This document shows positions 5,300 to 59,789 of a stretch of DNA of 61,775 nt, one piece after another. The DNA comes from a virus (taxonomy: Duplodnaviria > Caudoviricetes), in the IMG/VR virus record IMGVR_UViG_3300023112_000002, positions 1 through 61,775 of that record; one strand, 5' to 3'. Under the pieces are notes generated by a model. That model did not search any database. It saw nothing but the letters and a program-made list of their open reading frames with translations, and was not told the DNA's origin. The translations under genes and the position numbers were made by a program. The stretch's first letter is position 1, and the number at the start of each line of letters is the position of its first letter.

Positions 5300-5696
5300 T
5301 ATTTGGGCCTCTATATTTGGAAAGGTAATAGAAAGTGCCGAAGGTATCCTCGACGAAGTTATCACAACTAAGGAGGAGAAGGAGACTATTAAGTTAGAGT
5401 TAAAAAAAATCTTACTGGAAGCGGAGCGTGAAGCTTTCGCTAAAGAGGTGGAGGACCGTAAGGACGCCAGGTCGTTATATAAAGACGACGCTTTGATACA
5501 AAAAATCTTAGCCGCTTTATTTACTATAGCATATTTCACTCTCTCATATATTATGTTTAAATACTTTGTGTTCCACGACGTCGTGCTTTCGGAGTATGAG
5601 ATAGGGTTTATCTCTACGATATTTGGAGCCATGAGTGCCAAGGTAAATACCATAGTAGACTTTTTCTTTGGGGGCAGCTCAAAAGAAAATAAATAA
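5292..5696 (+). CDS. Putative holin (3TM-holin-like)
   Basis: Amphipathic N-terminus, EVEDRKDAR, two hydrophobic segments, C-terminal DFFFGGS. Confidence 0.7.
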   Translation: MINIWASIFGKVIESAEGILDEVITTKEEKETIKLELKKILLEAEREAFAKEVEDRKDARSLYKDDALIQKILAALFTIAYFTLSYIMFKYFVFHDVVLSEYEIGFISTIFGAMSAKVNTIVDFFFGGSSKENK

Positions 5697-9986: not shown

Positions 9987-10245
9987 ATTACAGATCATAG
10001 AGGCGGGCGAAAAGGCTGTGCGACAATTAATTAAGGTAGCTAAAGAAGATATCATCAAGTTTGATAAGGACGATGAGTTGGCTGCGGATAGATTAAAGAA
10101 CGCAGCGGCTACCAAGAAGCTTTGCATCATGGATGCTTTTGAGATATTAAAAAGAATAGAAGAAGAGAAAGCTCTTTTAGATGGGGCTCCTTTAGAAAAT
10201 AAAACACATACCCCGAAAGGATTTGCCGAGTCAAGATCAAAATAG
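9967..10245 (+). CDS. Putative terminase small subunit
   Basis: Small helical protein immediately upstream of and overlapping TerL; positional inference. Confidence 0.5.
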   Translation: MDTKEIKLQIIEAGEKAVRQLIKVAKEDIIKFDKDDELAADRLKNAAATKKLCIMDAFEILKRIEEEKALLDGAPLENKTHTPKGFAESRSK

Positions 10246-32376: not shown

Positions 32377-35300
32377 ATGGACGAGCAAGTATTAAAAGAT
32401 TTAATAGCGACAGCTGAAGCTTCTAATTATAACTGGGAGGAAGTTATGCCTAAATTTCCTGAGCTTGCAGACGTAGATCTTCAAGTGTTAAAGGACTACG
32501 TAGAAACAGCGAAGCATTATGACTACGACTATGACGTTGTTAATGCTAAGTTTCCTGAGTTAGGCTTAAAAAAAAAAGGCGCGTCAGAACCTACTGTTCA
32601 AGAGGACGTTATGGAATCCACTACACCAGTCGTGGAGGAACAGCCTATCTCATCGGAGTCTTCCGCTCCTCAAGAGGGTGACCAATCTGTTTTTGATGCC
32701 GAGGTAGAAGAAGCTCCGGAAACGGTAACAGAATTTGCCGCTTACGACCCGAGGGAAGAAAGCGGAACCCCTGAATCAATGGCGCAGGGTATTGTAACTT
32801 CCGCGACGAACCCGATGTTGCGCGCTTTTGTAGACCCTGCAGATAGAACTAACGTCACATACGATGCTGACGCTACAACTTTCGAGAGGTCGCTGGCTTT
32901 TATTACTCCAGATTTAATTGGGAGAGAAGAGGAAGAGGTGGTAAATAGAATGAAGTATCATTTCACTGATTATGGATTTACCTTTTCTCAGACGGGGATA
33001 GGGGACGCTATGATTGTAAAGGCTGATAATGGGGAGGAGATAGAAATAGATTTAGACCCCTTCACTCGAGGAGGAGAGGAGCAAGGGTCTATAGAGTTGC
33101 AGAATTTTTTACAGCAGAACAGGAGGGTAGACCCAGAGATGGAAGAGCTTACATACTCCTACGATTTAAACCGTAAGAAATACTTTAGCCGTCAAGCGGT
33201 AGATAGAGATATACAAAGCGTTAGAGACCAGTCCGAAACGTTGGGTTTACGATACCAAGATTATTTAAGGGAACAGGGGGAGATAGATACCGCTATAACT
33301 GCTATGACACAAGTGCCGTTAAGTGAAAGGGGGCCAGAGTTTAAGGCGGAGTATGATGCGTTGATACAAAAGAAGAGTGAGTTAGCGGGAGTAAAAGGAG
33401 AATTACAACAGGAGGTAGGAGAGTTCCAGATTTATTCAGATAAAATAAATAGCGCAGTAGGGAACTATCTCACTATGAAGGAGGATGACAGTTCTGCGGG
33501 GTTAACATTTTTAAAAGCAGGATGGAACAATATCCTCTCAGGAATTACAGGTCCTTTAGCGAGTGCTGCAGGTATACCTATGGATCTATTCTATGGGGTA
33601 GCTCAAACGGTGGACGAAGACTTTGGGATGACGGAGGAGGAGAGGAAGGAGAGGTATATAACTATAGCTACAGATTTAGGCTATGACATCCCAGAAAATA
33701 TAGAGGACGATGCCGTGTATAATAAGTGGTTGGAAGGGTTGATGGAGAGTACTTTTGAGGCAGAGGGGGTTGAGGGAGAAGGTATATCTGCCACCATGAA
33801 TAGATATCCTAAAGAGATACGAGAAGAGTTAGAAGCTGAGGGTTATGATCCGTCTCGTGTGATTAATGCTGACGGATTAAAGATGTGGAATAACGAAGGA
33901 GGGATATTGGGTAACGGGGGATGGGAGGAAATTCCAGATTACGCTTCTGATACAAGCCCAGGAGAGAGATTGAAAAGGTTGGTGATGGATCAGGAGGTGA
34001 AAGAAAACAAAGAGCCTACCAAGCAGCTGGTAAGGAGCCTATTAGACGTTGCCAGATTCGATGACGTAAGTGAGGAGAGGGTGGCCGCTCAATCGGAGAG
34101 TGTTATTGTGGAGGGGATGTTAGGTTTAGCTCAGTCTGCGCCAAGTATTGCATTAGGTTTAATAGGTAGAGGGAAGGGCCCTAAATATAAAGGGGCTGAA
34201 AAGCCATTGGCAAAATTTATCCAGTCACTTAAAAACTATGCTACAAGCCCTGGTGCTGTATCTCAGACTATAGGCTTTAGCTTACTCCAGACCGACGCTT
34301 TGATGCAGGAGATGGAGAACGATCCAGACTTTAAATACGTTACGGAGACAGAGAAGAAGGCTCTAACAGTTCCTTTAGCTGTAAGCACAGCTATACTGGA
34401 GACGTATGGTTTACGTAGTTTAGCGAAGGGCCCTATGCTGGGTAAGCTGATGACGCAGGTGACGAAACTTCTTCCTAAAGGTGCTACACCGAAGATGTTT
34501 ACTGAGACATTCAAAAAGGTGGTAGAAAGTAATATAGCTAAAGGAGTGTATAGCAGCAAAGCTTTACGTGGCGTAGGTATAGTAGGGGGAGCCGCTGCCG
34601 TAGAGGCGGAGACAGGGGGGCTACAAACTGTGGCGGAGATAGGGATGAAGAACGTGTGGAACGATATGTATGAGAAGGAGATGTTCAATACCCCTGAGAT
34701 GTGGTCGGAGGAGTTTTATAACCAGGTAATAAGAGGGGCTGCGGCAGAGGCTGTAGGTGGTTTTGTAATGGGAACCCCTCGAGCTTTAACGACAGCTTTT
34801 AATAGGGGGGATATAGACGAAGTGTCTGACGATATGGTTGCACTGTTCAACGAGATTCGTAAGGACGGAACTACAGTAGAGGCATACAAGACGCAGTTAG
34901 ATTTAAAGGTAGCCAACCAGGAGCTAACAAAAGAAGAAGCCAACCAAGCTCTCTTAGACTTTGAAGTTCTTTCTGGAGCAGCCGCCTCTATAGAGAAAGG
35001 GACAGAGCTTACCCCTACACAAACCAAAAAAGCTTTAGGGTTGGTGTACTTAAAAAATAAGTTAGAGTCTGAGATGGACGGTATGGATCCAGACTTAGGG
35101 AGTTATAAAGCTAAGCAAGAGATGCTTGTCACAATAAAAGATAAGCTCTCTAAGATAGGTACCGAAGAAGAAGTAGATGCAAATTTAAAACCAAAGAAAG
35201 ATGCCATTCAAGAGTCAAGCACAACGGAAGTGGATGTACAAAAACAAACCCAAGATGGCGCAGCTGTGGGAGAGGGAGACACCACCGGGGGAGTTGCCGT

Positions 35301-38300
35301 TGAAAGTGAAAGCGAAACCGAAGTTTCTCCAGAGACAACGGAGGAGAAAGTAGAACTTACCGTAGAGGAACGCGCAAAACAAATAGAAGAGTTAGTGGAG
35401 CAGGAGCAGGAAGATAGCAAGCCTCTTGAGCCACAACCTATACCGCGTGAGCAGTTAGAGTCTATAGACGAAACGGTTTCTATAAATAAAAAGAACGCTC
35501 CGAAAAGAGTAAACCCTTTATTAGATACAGTAAAGAGGAGAGTTAGTAGGGCGGCTAAAGCCATTAAAAGAATTGCTCCAAGCGTAAAGATAATAATGCA
35601 TGAGAGCGCAGAAGATTTCACTGCAGCTACAGGGTCTCGAGGGAGAGGAACTTTTTTAGATAACACTATACACATAAACTTAGAAGACGCTTCAGGAACT
35701 ACAGTAGCTCACGAAGCGTTCCACGCTATCTTATTAAGTAAGATATCTACAGACCTTCAAGCGCAGCAAGTGACGAAGAGGCTGATGCAAAGTATGGCTA
35801 AGTCTTTGGATGCAAACTCTCCTTTAAAAAAGAAGATAGAAGAATTTGTGGAGGGGTACGATGAGAATATAAAGAATGAGGAGCGGTTGGCTCAGGTATT
35901 GGGGGAGCTATCTTCTAACTACACACAGTTAAAAGCTCCAGAGAAAAGTCTGGTGCGTAGGTGGATAGATAAACTTTCTAAGAGACTTGGATACGAGGTG
36001 TCGGAGTTTACTCAAGAGGATCAAGATGTGGTAGATTTACTTAACACGTTAGCCGCTAAGGTAACGGCAGGGGTAGAGGTAGAAGAGGGGGATGTAGAGA
36101 TTTTAGAAACCGAGCAGGGTGACGGAGGAGAAGTAGGTAAACTTAAAGTAAGGGAGCAGAAGGATTCTCGCAACTCCCCTAAAGTAGAGACAGACAAGAG
36201 ATCGTTTGCTAAATTTATTTCTAATAAAGACTTAGGAGATTTTGATGGGAGAGATTTCGTTACCAACATGTATGACTTTACTACAGCAGGTGTAGTGGAT
36301 ATAGGTAATGGTATTACTCTGGATCTACAGGGAGGGAAGAGTTATGTCCCTTTTATGATGGAGAAGCAGGGTTTGAATATCGGGGATGTGTCTAACTTAG
36401 CCGCGTTTAATAATAAAGCTCAGGCAGAAACTTTTGTAAGGAACTCAGAGCAAGGGAACGCAACCTTGTTTATGCCCCATGCTGGAACCATTGAAGGGTC
36501 GTGGCAATTTCAACAGTCTATATTTGAGCAGCTCATAAACGCTGCTTTAGATAATAAGATACTTTCTAATAAGGAGATAATAAACTCTTTCAACGAAGTC
36601 TTAACGAATGAGGTAGGAAAGAAAGCTTTCGCTATCTTTAAAAAGAAGTTAGGTAAGAATATAAGAAACTTTAACTCCTTCTCTAAGAACCCATTAGAGA
36701 TAGTAGAGCTCTTAAACACTACAAATAATTTTTCTCCTGAGTTAAGGAAAGCTTTAAACGATAAACTGTCTGCCAATAAAAAGTATCAGGCAGCTATCGG
36801 TGTAAAATCTAAAGAAGCTTTTGCACGTAAGATGGAGGACCCTTTGAATAAAGGTGTTGAAGGGGGTGACCTGATGGGGGTTATAGAGTTTGACAACACG
36901 AGCTTTGAGATAAGCAAACCTAAGCCAGGTGATGCAGACTACCATCCATCTTTTGCATGGACTGTCAAAGCAAAGATCGAGGGGATATATCAGCCTACTA
37001 AGTTTTACAAATCTTACGATGTGACGGAGGAGTACACCAGGTACAATCAATCTGGACCGAATGTATCTCGTAAAGCAGAGCAAACGAAGGAACAGTTTAA
37101 GAAATCCAATGTTATGGGACATACGGGGGCTGGACCTAAAGTAGCTAAGGTCTCGAAGCGTGAGCAGATTATAGGACAGAATGCAGAGCTTTCCGCACAG
37201 GTAAGAGAGGATTTACAGTACGCTAAAATTGAGCATGAAGCTTACATGATGCAGAAGGAGGGTGTCCTTGCCGCTCCTACAGAAAATATGATGAACCCCG
37301 CAGCTATTAAAGAGATAACAGGATGGGAGTTGGGGGCAGACGGGAAGTGGAAATATGAGATACAAGACGGAAGACTGAAGGAGGAGGGCACAGGTGTTTG
37401 GAAACTTTCGGATATATATGATGCCCCCGAGTTCTACGACGCATATCCCGAAGCAAAAGATATATTGGTGTCTATACAGGTCAGGCCTGAGGGTAAAGAA
37501 AATTCCTGGTATATGCCGGGTAATGAATTTATGTTACCCTCTATTGAGATAAATGTAAAAAATCAATACAGGGTTGTTCAAGACTTAGTTCATGAGCTCC
37601 AGCACTTTGTCCAATACCAAGAAGGGTTTGCTATAGGGGGTAATGAGTCTACATTCGCCTACAACCCTGAGCTGGTAAAACAAGCTGAAAAGGAGGGGAG
37701 TAAAGAGGAATTAGTTATAAAGAATGAGATGTTACGAGCTCTTTCTTTTACTATCGAAGAAGCTATAGGTGAGCATGAGGGTGTGGCTTTAGATAAAATT
37801 ATGACTAAAGAGTTTTTAGAGAAGAATATGGGCTTCTATCTTGACACCTTTGATAATCTTGTTGAGAGAGGATTGATTGACAAAGACGCAGATTTTGCTC
37901 AAGCTTTAGAAGACTTTTATTTTGAGCTCCCTGAAATGGATAGAAGAAAGCTTAAGATTGCACAGAGAGAAGGGGGAATGAATGAAGCTTTAGATGTTGC
38001 CGATGAGATATCTGAGCCTGTTAGAGAATCGCTTCAGAAGTTAGGTAATTTCGCAATGTACGAGAGGCTTATGGGGGAGGTAGAAGCTCGTAACGTCACG
38101 AAAAGATTATTTTATACCGCAGAGAAGAGAGTAAGAAATACGCTTGAGAGTACTGAGGACGTTAGCAGAGAAGACCAAATTGCATATTTTGATACGAGTG
38201 AAAGCAAGGAGGATGTAACTACCGAAGAGTCAAAGCCTGCCCCTCGTGAGCAGAAGGCTCCGATCAAGCAAACCAAAAGAGAGTTTGTAGCACGGTTGAA

Positions 38301-41300
38301 GGATGCCCTTAAGGGTGAGGGAAGTTTCGCGCATATGACGGCGGAGAATCCTGCGAACAAGACTATGTCCGCAAAGGAGAATGCTATAAGGAATAAAGAG
38401 TTGAAGGCGCAGCTCGATGAGATGGGGTACGATGCCGTAGCAATAGATGGTAGGTATGACAGAGACGAGAAGTCTTTCTTTGTGCCTGATATAAGTGAGG
38501 CGGATGCGATAGAGATAGGGAAGAAGTATGGACAAGAGTCCGTAGCCCACAGCAAGGGGATGCTATATACCACAGGTAAAGACAAAGGAAAAAGGAATCC
38601 CATCACGGGAGACGTAGAGGTAAATAATAAATTAAAGAATTACTATAGCGAGATACAAACTAAGGGTGGGAAAGTAAAGTATAGTGTGGGGTATAACTTC
38701 GACGTTCTCACAGAAGATTCCTCTAAGAAGAAGCCTGCAACTCGTGAGCAGAAGGAGGTAAGGTTCCAGAAGATAGCAGATAAGTTTCAGGATCCAGTAG
38801 AGATAATTAAACTTGCACGAACTGCAGGGTTCGAAGACTCCGAGATAAAATACTTCCTTCAGAAAACAAAGAAATTAAAAGTTAAAGAGATAAACGATCT
38901 TCTTAAAGTAGATGTAGATATGTTTGAGTCTATGCCTTCGGTATTTGGAAATGTACCAGGGGGGATGGTAGCGGGTAGGAAACTATATGAAGCTACTATG
39001 AAGAAGTTTAATTCTTTACTTAAGAAAAACTTGAAGCGCCCGAAAGAAAAGCAGGCAAGTATGGCTGATATGATAAACGAATCTATAGAGTTTATGATGG
39101 GCCGTAAAGTATATAAGGAGGCTACGGAAGGGGTGACGTCTAAAACAGAACTCTCTACCCTACAGCAGCAGCTACAAGCAGCGATGCAAGAAGCGTTAGG
39201 CGGAGGTAAGGTTAAAGATATAAGTAAGAAAATTAAAGAGCTGAAGAAGATTTTACGTCAGAAGATCCGAGGGGCGCGAGAGGTTAGAGATGTCAAGAGA
39301 CAGTTGCAAAGAACGATTCGTGAGGTGTTGCCCAAAGCTGCGTTTAATAAAACAGAAGTTAGAAACTTACTGAGAACGATACAGGACGCTGAGCCTAAGT
39401 GGTTGAAAGGAAATCTAAGGTTCCTTGCTGAAAAGATTGAGTCGTTGGCGGCAGAAAAAAATGTATCTATATTAAATAAAGCTATCCAAAAAATATTGGA
39501 CAATAAGTTTTTAGTTAAGGTGGGTGGTTTAGAGAAGTTGATTAAGATAGATCAGGCCACATATAAAATAGTGGAGTCTATAAAAGATAAGATGTATAAG
39601 GCTGCAGAAGTAAAGGATGATATCATTAAGGAGCAGACTAAACTTATCGAACAGGTAGAGGAATTAAATAGAAAGGTACAGCTGACAGAGGAAGAAGAGA
39701 CGCAGCTATTGGTGTTGAATATAGCGCTGGGTATTAACAATGCTAAGCTCATGGAGGATAGTAACCCCCGTAAAGCGGATCAGTTAGCGGAGGTATATAA
39801 CAACCTGAAAGATCTTATCACTCAAGGTCGCAACAACTATAAGGAAGCGGCGAAGGAAAGATCAAAAAGGTATGCGAAAAATACAGCCCTATTCCACCAA
39901 GCTTTAGAAGGCTATAAAGACGTATTAGATTTCACAGATCCAGAGGTGCTGGAGCGTATAAGGAAAGACCTTAAAGACAGGGCAGATGAGAAGGCTTCTA
40001 ACTACGGAAGGAACGCCCTTAAAGAATACTTTAAAAAGATAGGAGACAATATAGATAAGTACTTAAAGATGGGGACGCTGGGTTTAAGCCAACTGTCTTC
40101 AGCTTTAGATAAATCTCCTGGTGCAGCCTTCGAAGGTTTTATAAAAGACTTTGTATACCGAAAGGTGAATGAGTCTACCCGTATGTACAAAGAAAGCATG
40201 ATGGCTTTGGATCAGATACTTACGGAAAAGACAGAAGAGTATTTAGGGAAAGACTACGCAAAAAAGATTAAGGAATATAGGAAGTCTATAGATTTCCTTG
40301 AGCTACAAGACGGAAAGTTCTTGAAAGATCCGCAAGAGGTAAAGGATGCGCAGGCAGAATTTGATAAAGACCCTACCAGAAAAAATAAAGATAAATTAAA
40401 TAAGATAATTAGAAAGAATATTCCTTTCTCTAACCTCACCCCTCTGCAGCTGCAGTATCTATACTTTCAGTATAAGCAGAAGGATACGCATGCAGGTTTT
40501 AAAACTTCATTGGGGGACAACTACCAGCCTATAATGGATGGGTTGAGTAAGCATTTTGAAGAGACTTACCCTGATCTTTTAGAGCTGGGGCGCTGGCAGG
40601 TAGAGGTTTTGCTTCCTTCGCTATATGAAAAGTATAACGAAGTATACAAGAAGTTATACAATACAGACCTACCTCAGAGGGATAACTATTCTGGAAGAAC
40701 ATTTAGAGTTATATCAAAAGGAGATAAGGTAGAGATGGAGAAGTACGATCCTTTGTCTCTCCTCTCGGAACAGGGTATGCCTCAGATGGGGATGAATGTA
40801 ATAGGAAACTCTACTAAGCTGACTCAGAAAAATAGTAAAGCTATTATGCCTGTCGATGCTTTCACAGCTATCGATACATACCTGAAAGATATGGAGCACT
40901 TCGCTGCATATGCAGAGAATATCAATGAAATATCTAAAGTGTTCTTTAATAAAGATATTGTAGATACCATTGTAAGTATACACGGACAGGATGTCTACGA
41001 TACCATTAGGAAACAATTAATGGCTACAGCTCAACGCGGAGCCAATCAATCTGATAAGACTGTTGATTTGGTAAATAGAGCTAACAATATATTTATTGTA
41101 CAGAAACTGGGAGCGGGGCTTACGGTATACCTTAAGCAGTTAACTTCTATTGGGACTTACGGAAACTTTATCGGGTACGGAAACTGGATAAAGACAGCTA
41201 CCACTATGGGACCTAAAGAGTTTATAAAAGCATGGAAAGAAATCTCTGAAGAGTCGGTATATATAAAGTATAGATACTGGCAGCAGATTAGTAAAACGAT

Positions 41301-42390
41301 TGAAGCATATGGGGAGAAGCAGATGGAGACATATACTCCAGGAGATAAGGGTAATAAAACACTTCGACTCCTTATGTCACCGATTAAAGCGGGAGATAAG
41401 CAGGCTATATATTTAGGTGGTATACCTAACTATGTGTTCTTAAAAAACAAATTCATGAAGCAAGGCATGAGTGAGGAGAACGCAAAGAAGAAAGCGATGC
41501 TGATGTTTGAGGAACAAACCAAGGAGGTTCAGCAGTCTTCAGATAAGCAAGATAAAGATTCGATACAAAATGAGGGCGGTCTTGTTCAGACTTTTAATAT
41601 GTTTATGTCTGCCCCGAAAGCATACCTAAGACAAATATTTGGAGGGTATAGAGAGTTGGGGCGTAATATAAAAGATGGTTCAGGTAAAGGAACCACGGGT
41701 GAAAACCTCAGAACTATATTGGTGTATCAATTTGCTATGCCTATGATCTTTCAATGGGCAGGATCAGGATTCCCTGTAACGGACTGGGATGAAGAGGATA
41801 AGAAAGATATGGCCAGAGCAGCGATCCTAAGCGTGTTCAATTCTATCTTTGTGTTGGGTCAGATATTAGAAATGGGGGCTGACTACGCTACAGGTAAGCC
41901 ATGGTGGGATGATTTGAAACAATTCCCGGTGCTTGATTTAGTAAAGGATGCTATTAAACAGTATGACAAAACCAACCTTGAGGACTCTGAGAAAGCAGAT
42001 GAAGCTTGGAAGCAATTTATATTTACCCTTATGCCTTTAGCTTCTGTAGTTCCAGGAGGACGTACCGTAGCGGCTCTCCCTTTTAAAACTTTAGATAGGA
42101 TGAGGTTAAATATGAAGAAGATTATTCAAGATGGTGGCGACCCTAAAGAAGTCTTCTTAAGATTGTTTAACTACTCCGACTATGTTATAGAGGGGCCTGA
42201 AGAGAAAGAGAAGAAGACGAAGAAGCTAAGAAAGAGTGAGGTGGATAAGTATATGCCCGAGCTATCCGAACAGATGGAAGAGTTTAATAACGATCCAGAC
42301 TATAAAGAAATGTTAAAGGATATAAAGGATCTAAAGAAAGAGCAAGAGGCTATGCGTCAAGAGCTCTTGGAAGAGATGTTTGCTGATTAA
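32377..42390 (+). CDS. Giant (3337-aa) polyvalent ejection protein with zincin-like HExxH, LPD23-like and DUF3293-like modules
   Basis: HEAFH (~35710); TGWELGADGKWKYEI, HELQHFVQYQEGF and GEVEARNV (~37320-38100); TAENP...N..L...GY...GRY...EKSFFV (~38330-38480). Confidence 0.7.
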   Translation: MDEQVLKDLIATAEASNYNWEEVMPKFPELADVDLQVLKDYVETAKHYDYDYDVVNAKFPELGLKKKGASEPTVQEDVMESTTPVVEEQPISSESSAPQEGDQSVFDAEVEEAPETVTEFAAYDPREESGTPESMAQGIVTSATNPMLRAFVDPADRTNVTYDADATTFERSLAFITPDLIGREEEEVVNRMKYHFTDYGFTFSQTGIGDAMIVKADNGEEIEIDLDPFTRGGEEQGSIELQNFLQQNRRVDPEMEELTYSYDLNRKKYFSRQAVDRDIQSVRDQSETLGLRYQDYLREQGEIDTAITAMTQVPLSERGPEFKAEYDALIQKKSELAGVKGELQQEVGEFQIYSDKINSAVGNYLTMKEDDSSAGLTFLKAGWNNILSGITGPLASAAGIPMDLFYGVAQTVDEDFGMTEEERKERYITIATDLGYDIPENIEDDAVYNKWLEGLMESTFEAEGVEGEGISATMNRYPKEIREELEAEGYDPSRVINADGLKMWNNEGGILGNGGWEEIPDYASDTSPGERLKRLVMDQEVKENKEPTKQLVRSLLDVARFDDVSEERVAAQSESVIVEGMLGLAQSAPSIALGLIGRGKGPKYKGAEKPLAKFIQSLKNYATSPGAVSQTIGFSLLQTDALMQEMENDPDFKYVTETEKKALTVPLAVSTAILETYGLRSLAKGPMLGKLMTQVTKLLPKGATPKMFTETFKKVVESNIAKGVYSSKALRGVGIVGGAAAVEAETGGLQTVAEIGMKNVWNDMYEKEMFNTPEMWSEEFYNQVIRGAAAEAVGGFVMGTPRALTTAFNRGDIDEVSDDMVALFNEIRKDGTTVEAYKTQLDLKVANQELTKEEANQALLDFEVLSGAAASIEKGTELTPTQTKKALGLVYLKNKLESEMDGMDPDLGSYKAKQEMLVTIKDKLSKIGTEEEVDANLKPKKDAIQESSTTEVDVQKQTQDGAAVGEGDTTGGVAVESESETEVSPETTEEKVELTVEERAKQIEELVEQEQEDSKPLEPQPIPREQLESIDETVSINKKNAPKRVNPLLDTVKRRVSRAAKAIKRIAPSVKIIMHESAEDFTAATGSRGRGTFLDNTIHINLEDASGTTVAHEAFHAILLSKISTDLQAQQVTKRLMQSMAKSLDANSPLKKKIEEFVEGYDENIKNEERLAQVLGELSSNYTQLKAPEKSLVRRWIDKLSKRLGYEVSEFTQEDQDVVDLLNTLAAKVTAGVEVEEGDVEILETEQGDGGEVGKLKVREQKDSRNSPKVETDKRSFAKFISNKDLGDFDGRDFVTNMYDFTTAGVVDIGNGITLDLQGGKSYVPFMMEKQGLNIGDVSNLAAFNNKAQAETFVRNSEQGNATLFMPHAGTIEGSWQFQQSIFEQLINAALDNKILSNKEIINSFNEVLTNEVGKKAFAIFKKKLGKNIRNFNSFSKNPLEIVELLNTTNNFSPELRKALNDKLSANKKYQAAIGVKSKEAFARKMEDPLNKGVEGGDLMGVIEFDNTSFEISKPKPGDADYHPSFAWTVKAKIEGIYQPTKFYKSYDVTEEYTRYNQSGPNVSRKAEQTKEQFKKSNVMGHTGAGPKVAKVSKREQIIGQNAELSAQVREDLQYAKIEHEAYMMQKEGVLAAPTENMMNPAAIKEITGWELGADGKWKYEIQDGRLKEEGTGVWKLSDIYDAPEFYDAYPEAKDILVSIQVRPEGKENSWYMPGNEFMLPSIEINVKNQYRVVQDLVHELQHFVQYQEGFAIGGNESTFAYNPELVKQAEKEGSKEELVIKNEMLRALSFTIEEAIGEHEGVALDKIMTKEFLEKNMGFYLDTFDNLVERGLIDKDADFAQALEDFYFELPEMDRRKLKIAQREGGMNEALDVADEISEPVRESLQKLGNFAMYERLMGEVEARNVTKRLFYTAEKRVRNTLESTEDVSREDQIAYFDTSESKEDVTTEESKPAPREQKAPIKQTKREFVARLKDALKGEGSFAHMTAENPANKTMSAKENAIRNKELKAQLDEMGYDAVAIDGRYDRDEKSFFVPDISEADAIEIGKKYGQESVAHSKGMLYTTGKDKGKRNPITGDVEVNNKLKNYYSEIQTKGGKVKYSVGYNFDVLTEDSSKKKPATREQKEVRFQKIADKFQDPVEIIKLARTAGFEDSEIKYFLQKTKKLKVKEINDLLKVDVDMFESMPSVFGNVPGGMVAGRKLYEATMKKFNSLLKKNLKRPKEKQASMADMINESIEFMMGRKVYKEATEGVTSKTELSTLQQQLQAAMQEALGGGKVKDISKKIKELKKILRQKIRGAREVRDVKRQLQRTIREVLPKAAFNKTEVRNLLRTIQDAEPKWLKGNLRFLAEKIESLAAEKNVSILNKAIQKILDNKFLVKVGGLEKLIKIDQATYKIVESIKDKMYKAAEVKDDIIKEQTKLIEQVEELNRKVQLTEEEETQLLVLNIALGINNAKLMEDSNPRKADQLAEVYNNLKDLITQGRNNYKEAAKERSKRYAKNTALFHQALEGYKDVLDFTDPEVLERIRKDLKDRADEKASNYGRNALKEYFKKIGDNIDKYLKMGTLGLSQLSSALDKSPGAAFEGFIKDFVYRKVNESTRMYKESMMALDQILTEKTEEYLGKDYAKKIKEYRKSIDFLELQDGKFLKDPQEVKDAQAEFDKDPTRKNKDKLNKIIRKNIPFSNLTPLQLQYLYFQYKQKDTHAGFKTSLGDNYQPIMDGLSKHFEETYPDLLELGRWQVEVLLPSLYEKYNEVYKKLYNTDLPQRDNYSGRTFRVISKGDKVEMEKYDPLSLLSEQGMPQMGMNVIGNSTKLTQKNSKAIMPVDAFTAIDTYLKDMEHFAAYAENINEISKVFFNKDIVDTIVSIHGQDVYDTIRKQLMATAQRGANQSDKTVDLVNRANNIFIVQKLGAGLTVYLKQLTSIGTYGNFIGYGNWIKTATTMGPKEFIKAWKEISEESVYIKYRYWQQISKTIEAYGEKQMETYTPGDKGNKTLRLLMSPIKAGDKQAIYLGGIPNYVFLKNKFMKQGMSEENAKKKAMLMFEEQTKEVQQSSDKQDKDSIQNEGGLVQTFNMFMSAPKAYLRQIFGGYRELGRNIKDGSGKGTTGENLRTILVYQFAMPMIFQWAGSGFPVTDWDEEDKKDMARAAILSVFNSIFVLGQILEMGADYATGKPWWDDLKQFPVLDLVKDAIKQYDKTNLEDSEKADEAWKQFIFTLMPLASVVPGGRTVAALPFKTLDRMRLNMKKIIQDGGDPKEVFLRLFNYSDYVIEGPEEKEKKTKKLRKSEVDKYMPELSEQMEEFNNDPDYKEMLKDIKDLKKEQEAMRQELLEEMFAD

Positions 42391-53911: not shown

Positions 53912-54073
53912 TTACCTTTTGTTACAATTATTCCCATCACTCCATCCACCTCCGTTTCGATTGTTTCCGTACTCAGTCGCTCCTGATGAGGTAGCGCATG
54001 AGGTTAAACTCATAGCTACAAGTATAGCTACTAAGAGTGTGTATGCTAAGCATACCTTGTTTGTGTGTTTCAT
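53912..54073 (-). CDS. 53-aa putative lipoprotein (not in the ORF track)
   Basis: MKHTNKVCLAYTLLVAILVAMSLTS-CATSSG...: basic N-terminus, hydrophobic core, LTSC lipobox. Confidence 0.7.
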   Translation of the reverse strand: MKHTNKVCLAYTLLVAILVAMSLTSCATSSGATEYGNNRNGGGWSDGNNCNKR

Positions 54074-54204
54074 AGTTTAGATAGTTTTTCGTTTATTATT
54101 CTTAATTCCTCGATTGCAAATGTGCTTCCGTGAGCATCGCACTCATCCATCCACCAAAACAATTTCTTCTTGTCTTGCAGTAGTTCTTCTTTAGTTTTTT
54201 TCAT
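54070..54204 (-). CDS. 44-aa hypothetical protein (not in the ORF track)
   Basis: MKKTKEELLQDKKKLFWWMDECDAHGSTFAIEELRIINEKLSKL; ATGA coupling. Confidence 0.6.
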   Translation of the reverse strand: MKKTKEELLQDKKKLFWWMDECDAHGSTFAIEELRIINEKLSKL

Positions 54205-54210
54205 TGTATT

Positions 54211-54432
54211 TCATTTGTTATATTCTTTAATAAATTCTACTACTGCTTGGTACACTTCTTCGATGTTGCACGTTGTTAAGGCTACAGCTAAGTTATCCCA
54301 TCCTTCGGTGTTATCTTCAGGGTTTATACACTTCTTAGCTACTGGCATCAACCAATCCCATGAGATGTGGTACTCCATATACAATGGAGGTTTTACCCCC
54401 ATAAATTCTGCTATTAGTTTGTTGTTATCCAT
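54211..54432 (-). CDS. NKLIAEFMG/SWxWLMPV family protein, copy 2
   Basis: Shared motifs. Confidence 0.8.
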   Translation of the reverse strand: MDNNKLIAEFMGVKPPLYMEYHISWDWLMPVAKKCINPEDNTEGWDNLAVALTTCNIEEVYQAVVEFIKEYNK

Positions 54433-54712
54433 TGTTATATTCTTTAATAAATTCTACTATTGCTCGGTATGTGTTATCTATATCAAATGATAACACTGCA
54501 TTATGTACTCTATTGATAGCATCATCTACTTCGTCATCCTCACCAAACATGGCATCTATCTTCTCGCCTACTGGCATCAACCAAGACCATGATGTATGAA
54601 ACTCGTATGCCCAAAACTCTCCGCTATCTAACTCTAAGTTAGAAAGATGTAGGTTGCTTGGTATTTTAATATCCCATCCCATAAATTCTGCTATTAGTTT
54701 ATTGTCTTTCAT
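54425..54712 (-). CDS. NKLIAEFMG/SWxWLMPV family protein, copy 3
   Basis: Shared motifs. Confidence 0.8.
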   Translation of the reverse strand: MKDNKLIAEFMGWDIKIPSNLHLSNLELDSGEFWAYEFHTSWSWLMPVGEKIDAMFGEDDEVDDAINRVHNAVLSFDIDNTYRAIVEFIKEYNNG

Positions 54713-54957
54713 AGTTCCTTTGCATTACAGGTTAGCATATCAGTATCCATCTGCTCAAGTTCTTTTTCAGCTATGATATCCCATATCTCATCGAAGATAT
54801 CTTCTTCATACGTTTCAGGAGTGAGGTCGATCTTTGACGCTCTAAAATCTCCATTCACAATTCTTTTAATTTGTGAAGGTGTAAGATTGTCATCGGGTAG
54901 TTCTACCCCGAATGTTGTGGTGTATGTGCGCACAACTTCTATTTCAAATTTTTTCAT
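54709..54957 (-). CDS. Hypothetical early protein
   Basis: 82 aa, ATGA coupling. Confidence 0.65.
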   Translation of the reverse strand: MKKFEIEVVRTYTTTFGVELPDDNLTPSQIKRIVNGDFRASKIDLTPETYEEDIFDEIWDIIAEKELEQMDTDMLTCNAKEL

Positions 54958-55304
54958 TGTATTTCAATTAGTTTTCCGTTAATTTCTTCGTATTGATGTT
55001 CGCTCTCATCCTCCCACTCAGTGTAGTATAGGTAGTCTTGTTGGTATCCGATAAGCAATAAATCTTCATCCGTTTCCTCCTCATTCTTTGCTCTCTCTAT
55101 CGCTTCAGCCAACTCATCCCACCTCTCGTTATCTTGTACGTTCAAAGGTGTAAGGTCATCTACTTCTCGAAGGATTGCATCTCGGTCATTTCTACATTCA
55201 GTTAACGTACTCTTCTCAGACTTGGTGTAGAACACACCTTCGCCCCAGCACCAACCTTCGTTCATTCCTTCGCCCGTTATAGAGCATTTACGTGCGTATT
55301 TCAT
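54954..55304 (-). CDS. Hypothetical early protein
   Basis: 116 aa, RKCSITGEGMNEGW and YYTEWE; flanked by TGAAATAC repeats. Confidence 0.7.
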   Translation of the reverse strand: MKYARKCSITGEGMNEGWCWGEGVFYTKSEKSTLTECRNDRDAILREVDDLTPLNVQDNERWDELAEAIERAKNEEETDEDLLLIGYQQDYLYYTEWEDESEHQYEEINGKLIEIQ

Positions 55305-55633
55305 TTGTTATATTCTTTAATAAATTCTACTACTGCTTTGTAGGTTGCTTCGTGTAGTGTTAATCCAACCTCAAAGATTCTTCTATACTTTTCGTCCTCT
55401 TTGTAGCATAGAATTACACATTGGTCAGACTCATTGTTTGTTTCTATTGTTATGGTGTGATATAACTCACCAATCTTTTCTACAACAGGCATCAACCAAT
55501 TCCATGAAGTGTGATATTGTGCTTGTTCATACACATCTACATCTACGTTTATCTTTCCTTGATGTAGTGAGGCTAATGAATCCTTGAAAGAATCCATCCC
55601 CATAAATTCTACTATTAGTTTGTTATCGTTCAT
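55301..55633 (-). CDS. NKLIAEFMG/SWxWLMPV family protein, copy 4
   Basis: Shared motifs. Confidence 0.8.
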   Translation of the reverse strand: MNDNKLIVEFMGMDSFKDSLASLHQGKINVDVDVYEQAQYHTSWNWLMPVVEKIGELYHTITIETNNESDQCVILCYKEDEKYRRIFEVGLTLHEATYKAVVEFIKEYNK

Positions 55634-55776
55634 GCTTTCTTAATTGTGTCGATTATTTTTACTCCCGATGCGCTCACCTTGTCGTACCATCTTGAAAAGT
55701 GTAGTTCGTTGTTGAACGTCTTGGTTTTAGTTATGTAGCGATTGCCTCGCTTGATTGATATGTCGTATGTTATCAT
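55630..55776 (-). CDS. 48-aa hypothetical protein (not in the ORF track)
   Basis: MITYDISIKRGNRYITKTKTFNNELHFSRWYDKVSASGVKIIDTIKKA; ATGA overlaps at both ends. Confidence 0.65.
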   Translation of the reverse strand: MITYDISIKRGNRYITKTKTFNNELHFSRWYDKVSASGVKIIDTIKKA

Positions 55777-56045
55777 AGTAGTGAAGGTATTGTTGCAAGG
55801 AGAACGTGAATCTTCTTGAAGTGATTGATGTACTCAAGTTCATCGTTTAAAGCGTCCAAAAGTTCGTCCATCGAATACTCGTCATCAACACATCCCTCAA
55901 CCTCTGCATATAGACTCTTAGCACGTTCGTATGAGTAGAGCATATGGTCGTGGTAGGTGTCTCCGCGCTGACCTTCGACTACGTAGATTCCATACGTAGC
56001 GTATGTGTCGTATATCTTGCGCATTATGTTTTGTGCTTTGTTCAT
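55773..56045 (-). CDS. Hypothetical early protein
   Basis: 90 aa, coupled. Confidence 0.65.
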   Translation of the reverse strand: MNKAQNIMRKIYDTYATYGIYVVEGQRGDTYHDHMLYSYERAKSLYAEVEGCVDDEYSMDELLDALNDELEYINHFKKIHVLLATIPSLL

Positions 56046-56242
56046 TTTGATAGGTGGTTTAAGATTTCTTGCGCTTTGTCCATCGCATAGCTACGTTGTT
56101 GTGTCATCGTTCCAGCAACTTGTGGTGTAGGTAGCATAATGCTATATGCCTTGTCTCCTACCTTTAAAGTGTAGAACTCTTGGTGACGTTGGATAGCATT
56201 AGCCATCTCGTTTGTGTGGTTGTTTGTTTCTTCTAAAGTCAT
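56042..56242 (-). CDS. Hypothetical early protein
   Basis: 66 aa. Confidence 0.65.
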   Translation of the reverse strand: MTLEETNNHTNEMANAIQRHQEFYTLKVGDKAYSIMLPTPQVAGTMTQQRSYAMDKAQEILNHLSK

Positions 56243-56268
56243 CTTAAATTAGATTGGTGAATAATTAG

Positions 56269-56315
56269 AGCGGAGAAACGGAGCGAATCGTTTCGAGGTG
56301 CGCACTACCTCCGCT
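56269..56315 (-). ncRNA. Compact multi-stem intergenic RNA element
   Basis: AGCGGAG...CTCCGCT closing stem around GAGGT/ACCTC and GAAACG/CGTTTC hairpins; GC-rich within an AT-rich spacer. Confidence 0.45.
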
Positions 56316-56322
56316 TGTTGGT

Positions 56323-56547
56323 CTATCCTATCTCGATATCCCTATTCTCGATAGCCTCTTGCATCTCATCTTCCCAATCTGAAGAGAGCATATTCTCGTA
56401 CACCTCCTCTCGTGTAACGTGCGCCCAATTCGTGCGGATGTTGTACTGACCTGATGCAACCATCTCGTCAGATGGGGTGTAGTACACCTCAATTCTGATG
56501 TTGTCTATGTCTCTCTGTCCGCAGTTAACTACTCTAAAATCGTTCAT
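56323..56547 (-). CDS. Hypothetical early protein
   Basis: 74 aa, directly downstream of the ribozyme. Confidence 0.7.
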   Translation of the reverse strand: MNDFRVVNCGQRDIDNIRIEVYYTPSDEMVASGQYNIRTNWAHVTREEVYENMLSSDWEDEMQEAIENRDIEIG

Positions 56548-56570
56548 GGTATATGTATTAGTTAATAAAT

Positions 56571-56620
56571 GTAACAGACGTCTCGCGACGTTTCGACCAT
56601 TGAGGTCTCATCAGTGTTAC
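56571..56620 (-). ncRNA. Type I hammerhead ribozyme
   Basis: GTAACA-CTGATGA-GACC(TCAAT)GGTC-GAAA-CGTC(GCGA)GACG-TC^TGTTAC: complete catalytic core, three perfect stems, GUC cleavage triplet. Confidence 0.92.
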
Positions 56621-56895
56621 TTTGGGTTATAGGACATATAAACCTCACGCTCACTTGCGCTCTTAGGCACACCCGCTTCATTCTCGTAACCGAGTAAACG
56701 TTGCTTCGTCACTTCGTGAGCATCGATGGTCTTGTTCCATTGTCTATCGTTTTGTGTTAGTCTATCTCTTAGGTTAGCTATCTCAAATTGAAGGTCTTTC
56801 CGTTCCTTTCTATGGTGGGTATTAATCTCTCGTATCTGATTAAGGTAGTCGTTCTCAAGTTGTACGAGGTCTTGGAGTGTAACTGAATCGCTCAT
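56617..56895 (-). CDS. First early gene, coiled-coil hypothetical protein
   Basis: 92 aa; the stop codon lies inside hammerhead stem I. Confidence 0.75.
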   Translation of the reverse strand: MSDSVTLQDLVQLENDYLNQIREINTHHRKERKDLQFEIANLRDRLTQNDRQWNKTIDAHEVTKQRLLGYENEAGVPKSASEREVYMSYNPK

Positions 56896-56937
56896 GGTAT
56901 TGTGTATTAAATTAGTATTAAATGTTTAATGATGGAG

Positions 56938-56945
56938 CAAATATA
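56938..56945 (-). promoter_or_regulatory. Early promoter -7 box TATATTTG
   Basis: TAnnTTTG on the minus strand about 43 nt upstream of the first early ATG. Confidence 0.6.
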
Positions 56946-57205
56946 TAGCATAACTTCTATGCTCACAAGTTTTTTAGCATAAATCTTTTACTAAATGTGC
57001 ATATTTCCTCTATAACTCCCGTAAACGCTGAGAAAAAAAGTTTAAGAAATATGTGAATCGTTTGTGGATGTCAGTGTTCGTTGGGGTTTTAACCCTTGTC
57101 TCACTGTCTCTCAACAAGGTTATTCCCCTTCACTATGGGGATATGTGGGGAGTGTGTCCGTATATTGGGAGCATATAGCTACGTATAGCGGAACGATGAA
57201 CGAAG

Positions 57206-57241
57206 AGCCGAGCCGAGCCGAGCCGATAGCCGAGCCGAGCC
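57206..57241. repeat. (AGCCG)n tandem repeat in the divergent non-coding region
   Basis: 4 units, then AT, then 2 units and a partial unit. Confidence 0.9.
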
Positions 57242-57388
57242 TATCACCCCCTACCTAAAAGCTAAAACATTTGACCGAAATTTTTGAAAACATCACCCCC
57301 CCTTCGAAAACAAATCACTTTCCTCAGACGCATACCTCGTGTGTGACCTATAATAACCCTCAACCCCTGGACATCTAAAATTTTTTTG

Positions 57389-57396
57389 TATCTTTG
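57389..57396 (+). promoter_or_regulatory. -7 promoter box TATCTTTG
   Basis: Upstream of ATG 57412; similar boxes at 57865-57872 and 58014-58021. Confidence 0.6.
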
Positions 57397-57411
57397 TCAA
57401 AAATAACTACC

Positions 57412-57612
57412 ATGAAAAAGATATCAGACTTCGTAGACGGTTTATATGTAGAGGGCGGACGTTTAATTAACGCTCGCGCACCAGGTGAAAGTGGCATTGC
57501 CCAGGCTGCTCGTATTAAAAGATCTATCTCTAACGACAGAAAGATAAACCAAATTGCAGAGGGGATTCAATTAGCTGAGGCTAAGAAGAAGTGGAATGAG
57601 TTAGAGTTTTAA
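57412..57612 (+). CDS. Hypothetical protein
   Basis: ATG 57412, with its own promoter and terminator. Confidence 0.7.
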   Translation: MKKISDFVDGLYVEGGRLINARAPGESGIAQAARIKRSISNDRKINQIAEGIQLAEAKKKWNELEF

Positions 57613-57635
57613 TTCACTATACCCATCACATTAAT

Positions 57636-57666
57636 AGAGGGAATCTTAACGGGTTCCCTTTTTTTT
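57636..57666 (+). terminator. Rho-independent terminator
   Basis: agggaatc...ggttccct followed by a T-tract. Confidence 0.7.
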
Positions 57667-57672
57667 ATCCAA

Positions 57673-57864
57673 TAGTGTTAAAGTTTAACACCTTTGTGTT
57701 AACTCAAAAAAAGTTTAACACCTTCTAACTCCTTTATTATTAATATATTACTTCTTTTAGTGTTAAAGTGTTAAACTGAAAGTAAGAATAGAGAAATAAA
57801 AAAAAAGAATAAATAGAAAATATATATAGTAGAGTATAGGTTATTCACTTTGTCACTTTAACAT
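57673..57864. repeat. AT-rich element with GTGTTAA/TTAACAC repeats, candidate origin (copy B)
   Basis: Multiple direct and inverted units; 57752-57775 identical to 48779-48802. Confidence 0.55.
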
Positions 57865-57891
57865 TATCTTTGCGCCCCAATTAATTTTAAA

Positions 57892-58002
57892 ATGAAGAAG
57901 CTTATTTACCGCTATCGATCTTTGGAGGAGAACTCCAAATTGAATCTAATAGTTATCGCCTACACGGTGTTAACTTTTTCCTTGTTATTTATTTCAGTAT
58001 AG
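57892..58002 (+). CDS. 36-aa putative membrane peptide
   Basis: MKKLIYRYRSLEENSKLNLIVIAYTVLTFSLLFISV after the promoter box at 57865. Confidence 0.4.
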   Translation: MKKLIYRYRSLEENSKLNLIVIAYTVLTFSLLFISV

Positions 58003-58047
58003 AATTTTTGTTATACATTTGTTCCACTAACTTTAATTTTATTTCAA

Positions 58048-59640
58048 ATGCAAGAGCAAGGGTATATTGCTAAAGACCTTTCCTTCGATGAAGAGGGCAG
58101 GGCAAAACTTATCAGCGGGATCACTGCTATCTCTAAAGCGGTTAAGAGTACGCTGGGCCCACGAGGCAAGACTGTCATCATTGAATCTACAAACCACCTT
58201 GGCGGATTAACTGTCACAAAGGATGGGGTCACTGTAGCGAAGAGTATTGATCTATACGATCCCGTTGAGAACATAGCTGTACGCATGGTAAAGGAGGCTG
58301 CTAATAAGACAGCTTCCATTGCTGGTGATGGAACCACCACGGCTATTGTTCTTACGGAAGCTTTGGTTTGTTCTGGCATAGAGCATATGTCTGGCGACGT
58401 CAATGCCACGGAGGTCATTGGTATCATCCGAGAGAAGGTTGACGAGGTTATTAAAAAGTTAGAGAAGCGATCTCGTAAGGTTACGGGCAAGAGGCTTTTG
58501 GATGTAGCCACTATCTCTGCTAACAACGATAAGAGTTTGGGTAAGCTTATCACGGATACCTATAACGAGGTTGGTTTGGATGGCATTGTTACGGTGGAGC
58601 GTTCTCAGACGGCAGACACCTATGCAGATATTACTACGGGTATTAAAGTTGACCGTGGGTATAGCTCCCCTTTGTTCATCAACAACCATAAGAAGGATGA
58701 GTGTGTGCTCGAGGATGTGAAGATTTTGGTATGCGATGCTGAGATCAACAACATCATGCAGATCGAGACTGTCTTGAAGGATGTGGTTCAGAAGAATGAG
58801 AAGCTGCTTATCATTGGAACGTGTAGTGTGAATATGATAAACACTTTAGCGGCCAATGTTATGAAGAACGGATTAAAGTTCTGTAACGTCCCTCCCCCCA
58901 ACTTCGGGTACAAGCAGCACGAGCTCATGCAGGACATCGCTTTGGCTGTTGGGGCTACGTACTTCTCTGAGAAGACGGGCGACGATCTTAGTCTTATCCT
59001 CCCCAGAGATTTAGGCCATGCGCAAAAAGTCGTGGCAGGCAAAGACTCTACTGTCATCCTTACGGGTAATGATATGAGCGAAGAGTGCACGACTCGCGTA
59101 GAGGAATTGCGTGAGCAGCAGGTGAGAACTAAGAACAAGGGTGAGCGTGACTTTATCAACACGCGTATCGCGAGTTTAGCTGGCGGCATAGGATGCATCT
59201 ATGTTGGTGGGGATAGTGACATCGAGCAGAAAGAAAAATTTGACCGCGTCGACGACTCGGTATGCGCTGTGCGCAGTGCCCTCCAGGAAGGCATCCTTCC
59301 GGGTGGCGGGTTAGCATTATGGCGTTTGGCTCCCGACCCTTCGCAGAGCTGTGACTATAGGGAGGAGGATTTGGCCAACCGTATTTTACACGACGCTTTA
59401 AAATCTCCTCTGCTTCAGATTATGGAGAACGCAGGATTGGATGGGGAGCGCATCATGGACAACGACGATCTTATAGACGACACCCATGGGTTCGATGTTA
59501 AGAACGAGAAGTACGGGGACATGTACAAGATGGGTGTTATCGATCCACTTAAGGTTACCAAGAATGCCTTGATCAATGCCACGAGTGTAGCCACCACTAT
59601 CCTTAGCACCAATGCTATTGTAACACACGCCCGCGCATGA
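58048..59640 (+). CDS. groEL: Chaperonin GroEL (phage-encoded, lacks the GGM tail)
   Basis: TLGPRG, VTKDGVTVAK, AGDGTTTA, DRGYSSP, GILPGGG, GVIDPLKV. Confidence 0.97.
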   Translation: MQEQGYIAKDLSFDEEGRAKLISGITAISKAVKSTLGPRGKTVIIESTNHLGGLTVTKDGVTVAKSIDLYDPVENIAVRMVKEAANKTASIAGDGTTTAIVLTEALVCSGIEHMSGDVNATEVIGIIREKVDEVIKKLEKRSRKVTGKRLLDVATISANNDKSLGKLITDTYNEVGLDGIVTVERSQTADTYADITTGIKVDRGYSSPLFINNHKKDECVLEDVKILVCDAEINNIMQIETVLKDVVQKNEKLLIIGTCSVNMINTLAANVMKNGLKFCNVPPPNFGYKQHELMQDIALAVGATYFSEKTGDDLSLILPRDLGHAQKVVAGKDSTVILTGNDMSEECTTRVEELREQQVRTKNKGERDFINTRIASLAGGIGCIYVGGDSDIEQKEKFDRVDDSVCAVRSALQEGILPGGGLALWRLAPDPSQSCDYREEDLANRILHDALKSPLLQIMENAGLDGERIMDNDDLIDDTHGFDVKNEKYGDMYKMGVIDPLKVTKNALINATSVATTILSTNAIVTHARA

Positions 59641-59789
59641 GACCTTGGGAAATAAATATAGGTTTCTATGTGGGTATCCTTATCGGCATAAGGAGTTACG
59701 ATCTGGAAGACGTAACCTCTCACGTTCTATATCTTCCTTTTATTAATATAGCTTTAATGATAGACAAGTACGATGAAACCGATTGGTAA
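59637..59789 (+). CDS. 50-aa hypothetical protein between groEL and groES (not in the ORF track)
   Basis: MRPWEINIGFYVGILIGIRSYDLEDVTSHVLYLPFINIALMIDKYDETDW; ATGA overlap with groEL. Confidence 0.6.
   Translation: MRPWEINIGFYVGILIGIRSYDLEDVTSHVLYLPFINIALMIDKYDETDW

Follow-up and report, generated by a model that had tools for sequence, protein, structure and literature searches.

What is the 50-nt element that ends the first gene and precedes the second in the leftward gene block of a phage genome: is it a self-cleaving ribozyme, and what would its cleavage do to the mRNA? The window analyzed here (the whole stretch of DNA, 61,775 nt) is a complete IMG/VR virus record of 61.8 kb with direct terminal repeats. 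Structural genes are on the plus strand. Small ORFs form a leftward block, behind which come the replication genes, namely those for a SNF2-type helicase and for a primase-helicase whose N domain is BT4734-like; a GroEL-like gene points rightward. The plus-strand structural genes include a 3337-aa ORF (32377-42390) that had no PHROG match; the GroEL-like chaperonin (530 aa, 58048-59640, plus strand) was judged from sequence only. The nearest named relatives of the primase were from phages of Flavobacterium, Nonlabens, Polaribacter, Cellulophaga, and Maribacter, and the primase was also 66.6% identical to one in a 60.9-kb uncultured podovirus record. Seawater metagenomes contained the phage, and a megablast search of positions 54000-59700 against GenBank phages gave no match. 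The phage is of the marine Flavobacteriia-phage kind.

Hammerhead cores are defined, in the standard numbering, by C3 U4 G5 A6 N7 G8 A9, G12 A13 A14, the pairs A15.1-U16.1 and G10.1-C11.1, and a position 17 (H17) that is not G. In minus-strand order (56620 to 56571), the element consisted of the 5′ arm of stem I (GUAACA), CUGAUGA, stem II with its loop (GACC-UCAAU-GGUC), GAAA, stem III with its loop (CGUC-GCGA-GACG), UC, and the 3′ arm of stem I (UGUUAC). The conserved core was complete (CUGAUGA, the G-C pair closing stem II, GAAA, and GUC), and both the sequence and the minimum-energy fold gave a three-helix junction with stem I open and loops on stems II and III, which is the type I topology. 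A first-pass annotation of this DNA had claimed a complete type I hammerhead on the sense strand, cut between 56577 and 56576 and overlapping the stop codon of the first gene, and each of these claims held: all core nucleotides and the three stems were present in the sequence, the Rfam model of the type was matched over its full length, the ORF list placed the motif on the sense strand, C17 fell on 56577, and the TAA stop codon of gene 1 (56617-56619) coincided with nucleotides 2-4 of the hammerhead, within the 5′ arm of stem I (Table 1). The predicted cut leaves a 29-nt leader before the next ATG at 56547.

The bare core pattern was found once in the window, compared with a mean of 0.04 matches in 100 shuffles (at least one match in 4 of the 100). 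The match to the Rfam family RF00163 (Hammerhead_1) covered model positions 1-45 with a score of 29.0 bits (E = 3.1e-5 in a 401-nt search, 0.0047 in the whole window, and 1.1e-6 in the genome search), below the gathering score of 34 bits, chiefly owing to a stem III and loop that exceed those of the model in length. At gathering thresholds, Rfam therefore reported no ribozyme in the window. In both the whole-window and the genome searches, this was the sole hammerhead of the genome.

Within 76-nt and 81-nt contexts, the hammerhead was the minimum-energy fold, with a mean pair probability of approximately 0.96. When at least 70 nt of the upstream coding sequence was added as naked RNA, an alternative fold won by 1.5-2.6 kcal/mol and the pairing probability of stem I fell to approximately 0, in a model that ignores tertiary contacts, cotranscriptional folding, and ribosomes; ribosomes on gene 1 and cotranscriptional folding may remove the competing fold. 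Stem I could be extended by three A-U pairs beyond a 1-nt bulge. Comparison of loop II (UCAAU) with the flanks by eye gave no consistent complementarity and no convincing stem I/loop II contact or pseudoknot, which makes activity at physiological Mg2+ uncertain.

Table 1. Positions of the hammerhead, its neighboring features in the window, and RNA elements in related loci (L numbers).
Feature	Position	Strand	Basis or remark
Type I hammerhead ribozyme motif	56571..56620	-	Sequence, RF00163, minimum-energy fold, covariation in homologues
Hammerhead stem I arms	56615-56620 and 56571-56576	-	6 bp, open
Hammerhead CUGAUGA core	56608-56614	-	
Hammerhead stem II and loop	56595-56607	-	4 bp
Hammerhead GAAA	56591-56594	-	
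Hammerhead stem III and GCGA loop	56578-56591	-	5 bp including A15.1-U16.1
Hammerhead C17	56577	-	Predicted cut 56577/56576; cleavage-site triplet GUC
Promoter-like site upstream of gene 1	56938..56968	-	TTG, approximately 20 nt, then TATATTTG
Gene 1, 92-aa ORF	56617..56895	-	ORF list
Leader on predicted 3′ product	56548..56576	-	29 nt, A/U-rich; stem I 3′ arm plus 23 nt
Gene 2, 74-aa ORF	56323..56547	-	ORF list
GCGGAG element, structured intergenic RNA	56269..56315	-	Between genes 2 and 3, ATG 26 nt after
GCGGAG element, locus extent in window	56255-56322	-	
Gene 3, 66 aa	56042..56242	-	Opens run of genes with 4-nt stop/start overlaps
GCGGAG element, locus extents	L002:2250-2317, 2559-2626, 2980-3047, 4124-4191, 4521-4588		
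GCGGAG element copies	L005:2486-2565, 3073-3140		
GCGGAG element copies	L091:371-438, 1221-1288		
GCGGAG element copies	L089:9704-9771, 10198-10266		
GCGGAG element copy	L008:442-509		
GCGGAG element copy	L004:1921-1988		
Type III hammerheads	L062:1027-1075, about 4876-4930		
Type III hammerheads	L069:1084-1134, 2151-2201		Locus also carries type I
Type III hammerhead	L072:2044-2094		
Type III hammerheads	L073:2832-2884, 3203-3253, about 5545-5600		
Type III hammerhead	L074:2129-2179		

Gene 1 matched no Pfam or PHROG family, and no relatives were found by a pattern scan of IMG/VR or by tblastn in 80 related loci. Homology to an ORF that lies upstream of a near-identical hammerhead in locus L091 was considered and rejected, as the blastp match was weak (E = 0.004 against one sequence, in a pairwise comparison without composition correction). 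The annotation had also noted that the leaders of genes 1 and 2 are alike, and we observed the same: ATACCATG occurred on the minus strand only at the starts of these two genes (both of its two matches), and the leaders could be aligned over most of their length, that of gene 2 terminating in AUACC directly before the AUG. Only genes 1 and 2 had gaps and leaders of their own; the subsequent genes overlapped by 4 nt.

Upstream of gene 1, a TAnnTTTG motif was found at 56945, and the arrangement TTG-N20-TATATTTG is one that we take to fit the Bacteroidota promoter consensus with its TAnnTTTG -7 motif. A sigma-70-type scan also had a match here (56968-56940), in a scan that yielded 10 sites overall compared with 11.9 expected from shuffles. 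The site presumably acts as a promoter, and gene order together with this site makes it reasonable to infer that the leftward block is an “early” operon. The hammerhead lies between two ORFs on their sense strand, and genes 1 and 2 are probably on a single transcript, since there is one promoter-like site and no terminator-like site between them.

Other observations concern the region farther upstream. Approximately 430 nt of non-coding sequence upstream of the promoter-like site (56970-57400, minus strand) was conserved, with 80% identity in L005, and in each of the four runs compared it was the part of the region with the greatest contig depth. It contained a run of GGCTC repeats (approximately 57205-57245) whose copy number varied among sequencing runs, and a second TAnnTTTG was found at 57405. 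TTAACAC/GTGTTAA repeats at 57690-57790 (minus strand), where the leftward operon and the GroEL-like gene diverge, are possible operator or origin sites.

A primase search yielded 244 related IMG/VR stretches, from which 80 loci were taken, each with up to 10 kb upstream; ORF calls in this census were naive (ATG only, at least 30 aa). The 80 loci contained 22 further type I hammerheads and at least seven of type III. Including that of the window there were 23 type I instances, only 21 of them distinct because L051 repeats L050. The window and the 80 loci together represented 1.26 Mb, in which a scan requiring the core together with all three stems matched 18 times on the primase (sense) strand and once on the antisense strand (ten shuffles, 0-1 per strand). 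A covariance model built from five 50-nt copies gave 17 matches at E < 1e-5 in the same 1.26 Mb, all on the primase strand. RF00008 had 13 matches, five of which were permuted matches to type I sites; combined with a type III scan, it revealed the at least seven convincing type III hammerheads, distributed over five loci (Table 1). These occupy the same gaps of the early operon as type I, so that both topologies are in use within a single phage family.

Every counted hammerhead of either type lay in the early region, in sense orientation and between ORFs, and the same region and orientation applied to all Rfam hammerhead matches in whole related records. RF00163 matched at E ≤ 0.01 in 3 of 50 related records and exceeded its gathering score in two, and gathering-threshold Rfam reported no ribozyme in seven related loci where the other scans show hammerheads. 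When the motif, model, and RF00008 scans were combined, about 18 of the 50 whole records had at least one hammerhead, a lower bound because many records are fragments.

Several copies departed from the usual core. Those at L058:2173-2235, L058:2555-2617, and L063:1504-1566 had an extra U after A9, which is reportedly among the variations that Perreault and colleagues described, and in those at L039:2535-2583 and L020:3490-3540 positions 10.1/11.1 were U.U and stem II had compensated changes farther in. A site at L107:3956-4013 (MT497078.1, Flavobacterium phage vB_FspP_elemoE_10-3D) was not counted as a hammerhead because of its degenerate stem II; it scored 30 bits with the covariance model, had good stems I and III and a full core, and lay between two sense genes. 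The phage is cultured and its record annotates a short antisense ORF across the site, which, if active, would be a possible experimental system.

In 15 distinct type I copies, 99.1% of the cells paired and 13 of the 15 pairs changed on both sides. The covariation score was 0.773, compared with 0.229 in shuffles, and was reached by none of 500 shuffles; slid-partner controls reduced pairing to 28-41%. The two pairs that did not covary were G10.1-C11.1 (present in 13 of the 15 copies, with U.U in two) and A15.1-U16.1 (15 of 15), as expected for hammerhead core features. A model-based alignment was used because MAFFT alone misaligned the copies; it was fitted to its own model and is thus biased toward the structure, and a plain pairing scan found the same helices independently. 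The stem II subtype of the window was also found in seven further IMG/VR loci with unrelated flanking genes, where stem I had changed in a compensatory manner (for example, GUUACA/UGUAAC).

Contigs from sequencing runs contained a variant of approximately 90% identity in which this hammerhead also precedes the gene 2 homologue; stem III is CGCU/AGCG there (CGUC/GACG in the window) and has the loop GAGA, which amounts to two compensated pairs. A joint between 56264 and 56570 in a DNA contig (90% likeness) hints at a further variant with the hammerhead directly before gene 3. The two metatranscriptome runs covered a small share of the region as assembled contigs, in which RNA ends are not visible. 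RNA contigs extended 47 nt into the hammerhead and ended at the GTAACAC junction, not at the predicted cut. We rejected this shared stop inside stem I as a sign of cleavage and read it as an assembly branch point, since DNA contigs also break at the same mosaic junction.

The position of the hammerheads relative to their neighboring genes was narrowly constrained. In 22 of the 23 type I copies, the upstream ORF ended at -4 to +20 from hammerhead nucleotide 1 (the remaining copy sits at a locus edge), always before the predicted cut, so that the 5′ product retains the stop codon. An ATG ORF of at least 30 aa began 21-38 nt past the cut in 19 of the 23. In type III copies, the stop codon preceded the cut by 31-41 nt, and the ATG followed the end of the ribozyme by 26-43 nt; with this geometry, the ribozyme remains on the downstream RNA. 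The common denominator of the two types is the separation of two cistrons and no particular end structure, and a cleavage that separates gene 1 from the downstream genes would fit this family-wide layout.

We consider the window motif to be probably a self-cleaving type I hammerhead that serves as an intercistronic processing site of the leftward early polycistronic mRNA. Transcribed within this mRNA of the ~62-kb marine Flavobacteriia phage, the 50-nt motif would fold and cut after C17 (56577). The 5′ product would be a gene 1 mRNA with its stop codon, closed by the compact stem II and stem III hairpins and a 2′,3′-cyclic phosphate end; the 3′ product would carry a 5′-OH and a 29-nt unstructured A/U-rich leader ahead of gene 2, similar in both length and sequence to the primary-transcript leader. 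The hammerhead would act as a punctuation mark, uncoupling gene 1 from the downstream genes and giving each piece defined ends. The motif, its conservation and covariation, and its fixed place between ORFs are observed; that the RNA is cut inside the cell, with consequences for mRNA stability or translation, is inferred. That a 5′-OH leader resists decay is an assumption and not a general one: the 5′-OH product of the glmS ribozyme is a preferred substrate of RNase J1 in Bacillus, so a 5′-OH can also mark an RNA for decay.

Cleavage might instead mainly serve translation, by placing an unstructured, 5′-proximal leader 29 nt before the AUG and making the start of gene 2 independent of gene 1; in a host belonging to the Shine-Dalgarno-poor Bacteroidota, ribosomes would start on gene 2 via the freed leader. 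We judge this unlikely as the main function. The narrow cut-to-ATG distance (21-38 nt in 19 of the 23 type I copies) is consistent with it but may reflect only tight gene packing, and the type III hammerheads of relatives stay on the 5′ end of the downstream RNA, so that the two types would not both yield a free unstructured 5′ end. The resemblance of the post-cut leader to the primary-transcript leader of gene 1, and the restriction of such leaders to genes 1 and 2 ahead of genes that overlap by 4 nt, agree with a role in translation. An analogy points the same way: self-cleavage of type I hammerheads in the 5′-UTR is needed for initiation in eukaryotic RNA viruses, according to the available part of PMC13725137.

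No hammerhead was present at the gene 1/gene 2 junction in the four closest relatives (L002-L005) and, thus, it is not essential to this type of phage. The promoter region, the gene 1 leader, and gene 2 were common to the window, L002, and L005; in L002 the leader was identical at 35 of 35 nt and gene 2 was 90% identical, with a different RNA element in front of gene 2. L002 and L005 had a gene 1 different from that of the window and no hammerhead. Their junction contained another structured RNA, the GCGGAG element, between the shared GTAACAC and the shared leader end.

In the window copy of the GCGGAG element, a 7-bp closing helix surrounded a short hairpin (loop AGUGCGC) and a 5-bp hairpin (loop AUUCGCUC), which were connected by a 4-nt linker. 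The loops AGYGCGY and AUUCGCUC were nearly invariant among copies. A model made from seven copies gave 15 strong matches and one divergent group. With the 7-bp closing helix, 99.0% of the cells paired and 10 of the 14 pairs changed on both sides; an initial structure, in which the closing helix was short and the first hairpin had 5 bp, fitted less well and was discarded (96.7% paired, with three unpaired cells at one pair). The placement geometry was the same as that of the hammerhead: the upstream stop was 7-20 nt before the element in 11 of 14 copies and the ATG was 22-29 nt after it in 13 of 14. At least one copy followed a TAnnTTTG motif, so the element can sit at a transcript start. Rfam gave no match to the element at E ≤ 10 in the window and no family across the five copies of L002. 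Along the L091 operon, a near-identical hammerhead and the GCGGAG element alternated.

Just upstream of the GCGGAG element in L005, positions 2466-2482 read GTAACACTGATAGACC. This matches the 5′ half of the window hammerhead, covering its stem I arm, core, and stem II arm minus one core G, and looks like either a hammerhead relic or the homology behind a module swap.

Clustering of 315 sense intergenic gaps from 81 loci revealed further module families in the hammerhead position: plain hairpins followed by GUCAGUUACAAAC (six in L003), terminator-like hairpins, and T-arm-like GGTTCGATTCC elements. Each of the six gaps in L003:1092-3248 had a variable, covarying hairpin and then a conserved (G)GUCAGUUACAAAC and leader; the GUC-AGUUAC part resembles a hammerhead cleavage site plus the 3′ arm of stem I, and no CUGANGA/GAAA core was found there. 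The T-arm-like elements (L028:1206-1310, L050:1947-2026, L039:3334-3439, and L123 at about 7940-7965, the latter directly upstream of a hammerhead) combined a canonical-looking T arm (GGTTCGATTCC or GGGGGTTCAAACCC) with a short acceptor-like helix. ARAGORN found no tRNA in five loci with such elements.

Stacking of the acceptor-like 7 bp and the T-like 5 bp suggests that the GCGGAG element is a tRNA mimic; a new ribozyme is also possible. Tentatively, and with more doubt than belief, the hammerhead could be viewed as one of several interchangeable modules that cut early mRNA, with the GCGGAG element as a new processing element (either a self-cleaving ribozyme class or a substrate of RNase P or RNase Z that imitates tRNA). 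The remaining punctuation modules would then be plain hairpins, T-arm-like tRNA mimics, and type III hammerheads, and all would yield short-leader mRNAs from the early polycistronic mRNA of Flavobacteriia phages.

The same comparisons bear on whether the hammerhead is a passenger, that is, a mobile or recombination-shuffled module that is carried along in early-gene cassettes and matters little to the phage. Its spread was sporadic (3 of 50 records by RF00163 at E ≤ 0.01, about 18 of 50 by all scans), it was absent from the closest relatives, gene 1 differed between the window and L002/L005 around a common promoter, gene 1 leader, and gene 2, and nearly the same hammerhead stood beside unrelated genes in other contigs. 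A neutral module, however, need respect neither strand nor position, and all copies were on the sense strand and exactly between ORFs; in addition, intact catalytic cores with covarying stems point to purifying selection on a foldable ribozyme. Taken together, these constraints make a mere passenger role very unlikely. That the motif is a non-catalytic structured spacer (a 3′ hairpin barrier, weak terminator, or nuclease site) is scarcely credible, since it leaves the invariant CUGANGA, GAAA, and UH unexplained where the stems have changed completely, even though relatives have simple or terminator-like hairpins in equivalent gaps.

The preferred reading, a hammerhead that cleaves between early cistrons, can be placed beside known systems. 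In the early genes of phage T7, RNase III sites in the intergenic gaps are where polycistronic mRNA is cut, leaving hairpin 3′ ends. Like these sites, the window hammerhead and its relatives are structured intergenic modules of early polycistronic mRNA; T7 depends on a host protein nuclease, whereas the window RNA would cut itself to leave a cyclic phosphate and a 5′-OH. Compared with RF00163, the same conserved positions were present over the full length, but the copies of the window and of most relatives were under the gathering score. The window hammerhead merits annotation; the curated Rfam threshold misses it and most of the relatives' copies.

Perreault et al. 2011 (PMC3088659), in the part of the article available, report in vitro cleavage of tandem prophage hammerheads within polycistronic fragments of approximately 2 kb and propose that hammerheads process long phage transcripts into operon-length or gene-length mRNAs. 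For a halovirus, the same part describes a hammerhead that precedes the start of an early gene by 13 nt and has a 5′ end mapped no more than 3 nt from its cut. A 2019 review (PMC6765202, available in part) repeats the idea of transcript processing and regards the purpose of bacterial and phage hammerheads as still undefined. A role in mRNA processing has thus been proposed for phage hammerheads since 2011, and the window motif most likely fits that kind. A literature search, its matches judged by title, found no published work on hammerheads in Flavobacteriia phages; the supplementary files of PMC3088659, which list hammerhead matches, might include metagenomic relatives of the window motif.

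What is new is the family-wide census, the fixed geometry, the mixture of topologies, and the finding that an undescribed three-helix RNA takes the place of the hammerhead at the gene 1/gene 2 junction. The phage family is a natural comparative system: its hammerheads, of two topologies, number in the dozens and always lie between early genes, with a constant spacing to the following start codon. As hammerheads are swapped against other RNA modules before the same genes, mRNA punctuation, the enabling of translation, and 5′-end chemistry become testable. The undescribed structured RNA was found by guilt-by-association, the same logic as for other ribozyme classes.

Like the prophage and phage hammerheads in the available part of PMC3088659, those found here have the consensus core, are intergenic, lie on the sense strand of operons, often occur several per operon, and have variable neighbors. 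Unlike the cases in that part, they belong to marine Flavobacteriia phages, have the stop codon in or next to stem I and a tight cut-to-ATG spacing, and mix types I and III in one phage family. The HHphage of HF1/HF2, with a 5′ end mapped within 3 nt of the cut (same part of PMC3088659), differs in its core, which is atypical and contains insertions, in its requirement for high salt or Mg2+, and in its archaeal hosts; the core of the window hammerhead is fully canonical. According to the available part of PMC13725137, the type I hammerheads in the 5′-UTRs of fungal and plant RNA viruses are also just upstream of an ORF, with cleavage linked to its expression; those systems are eukaryotic RNA viruses with cap-independent translation, whereas the window is a DNA phage with a bacterial host.
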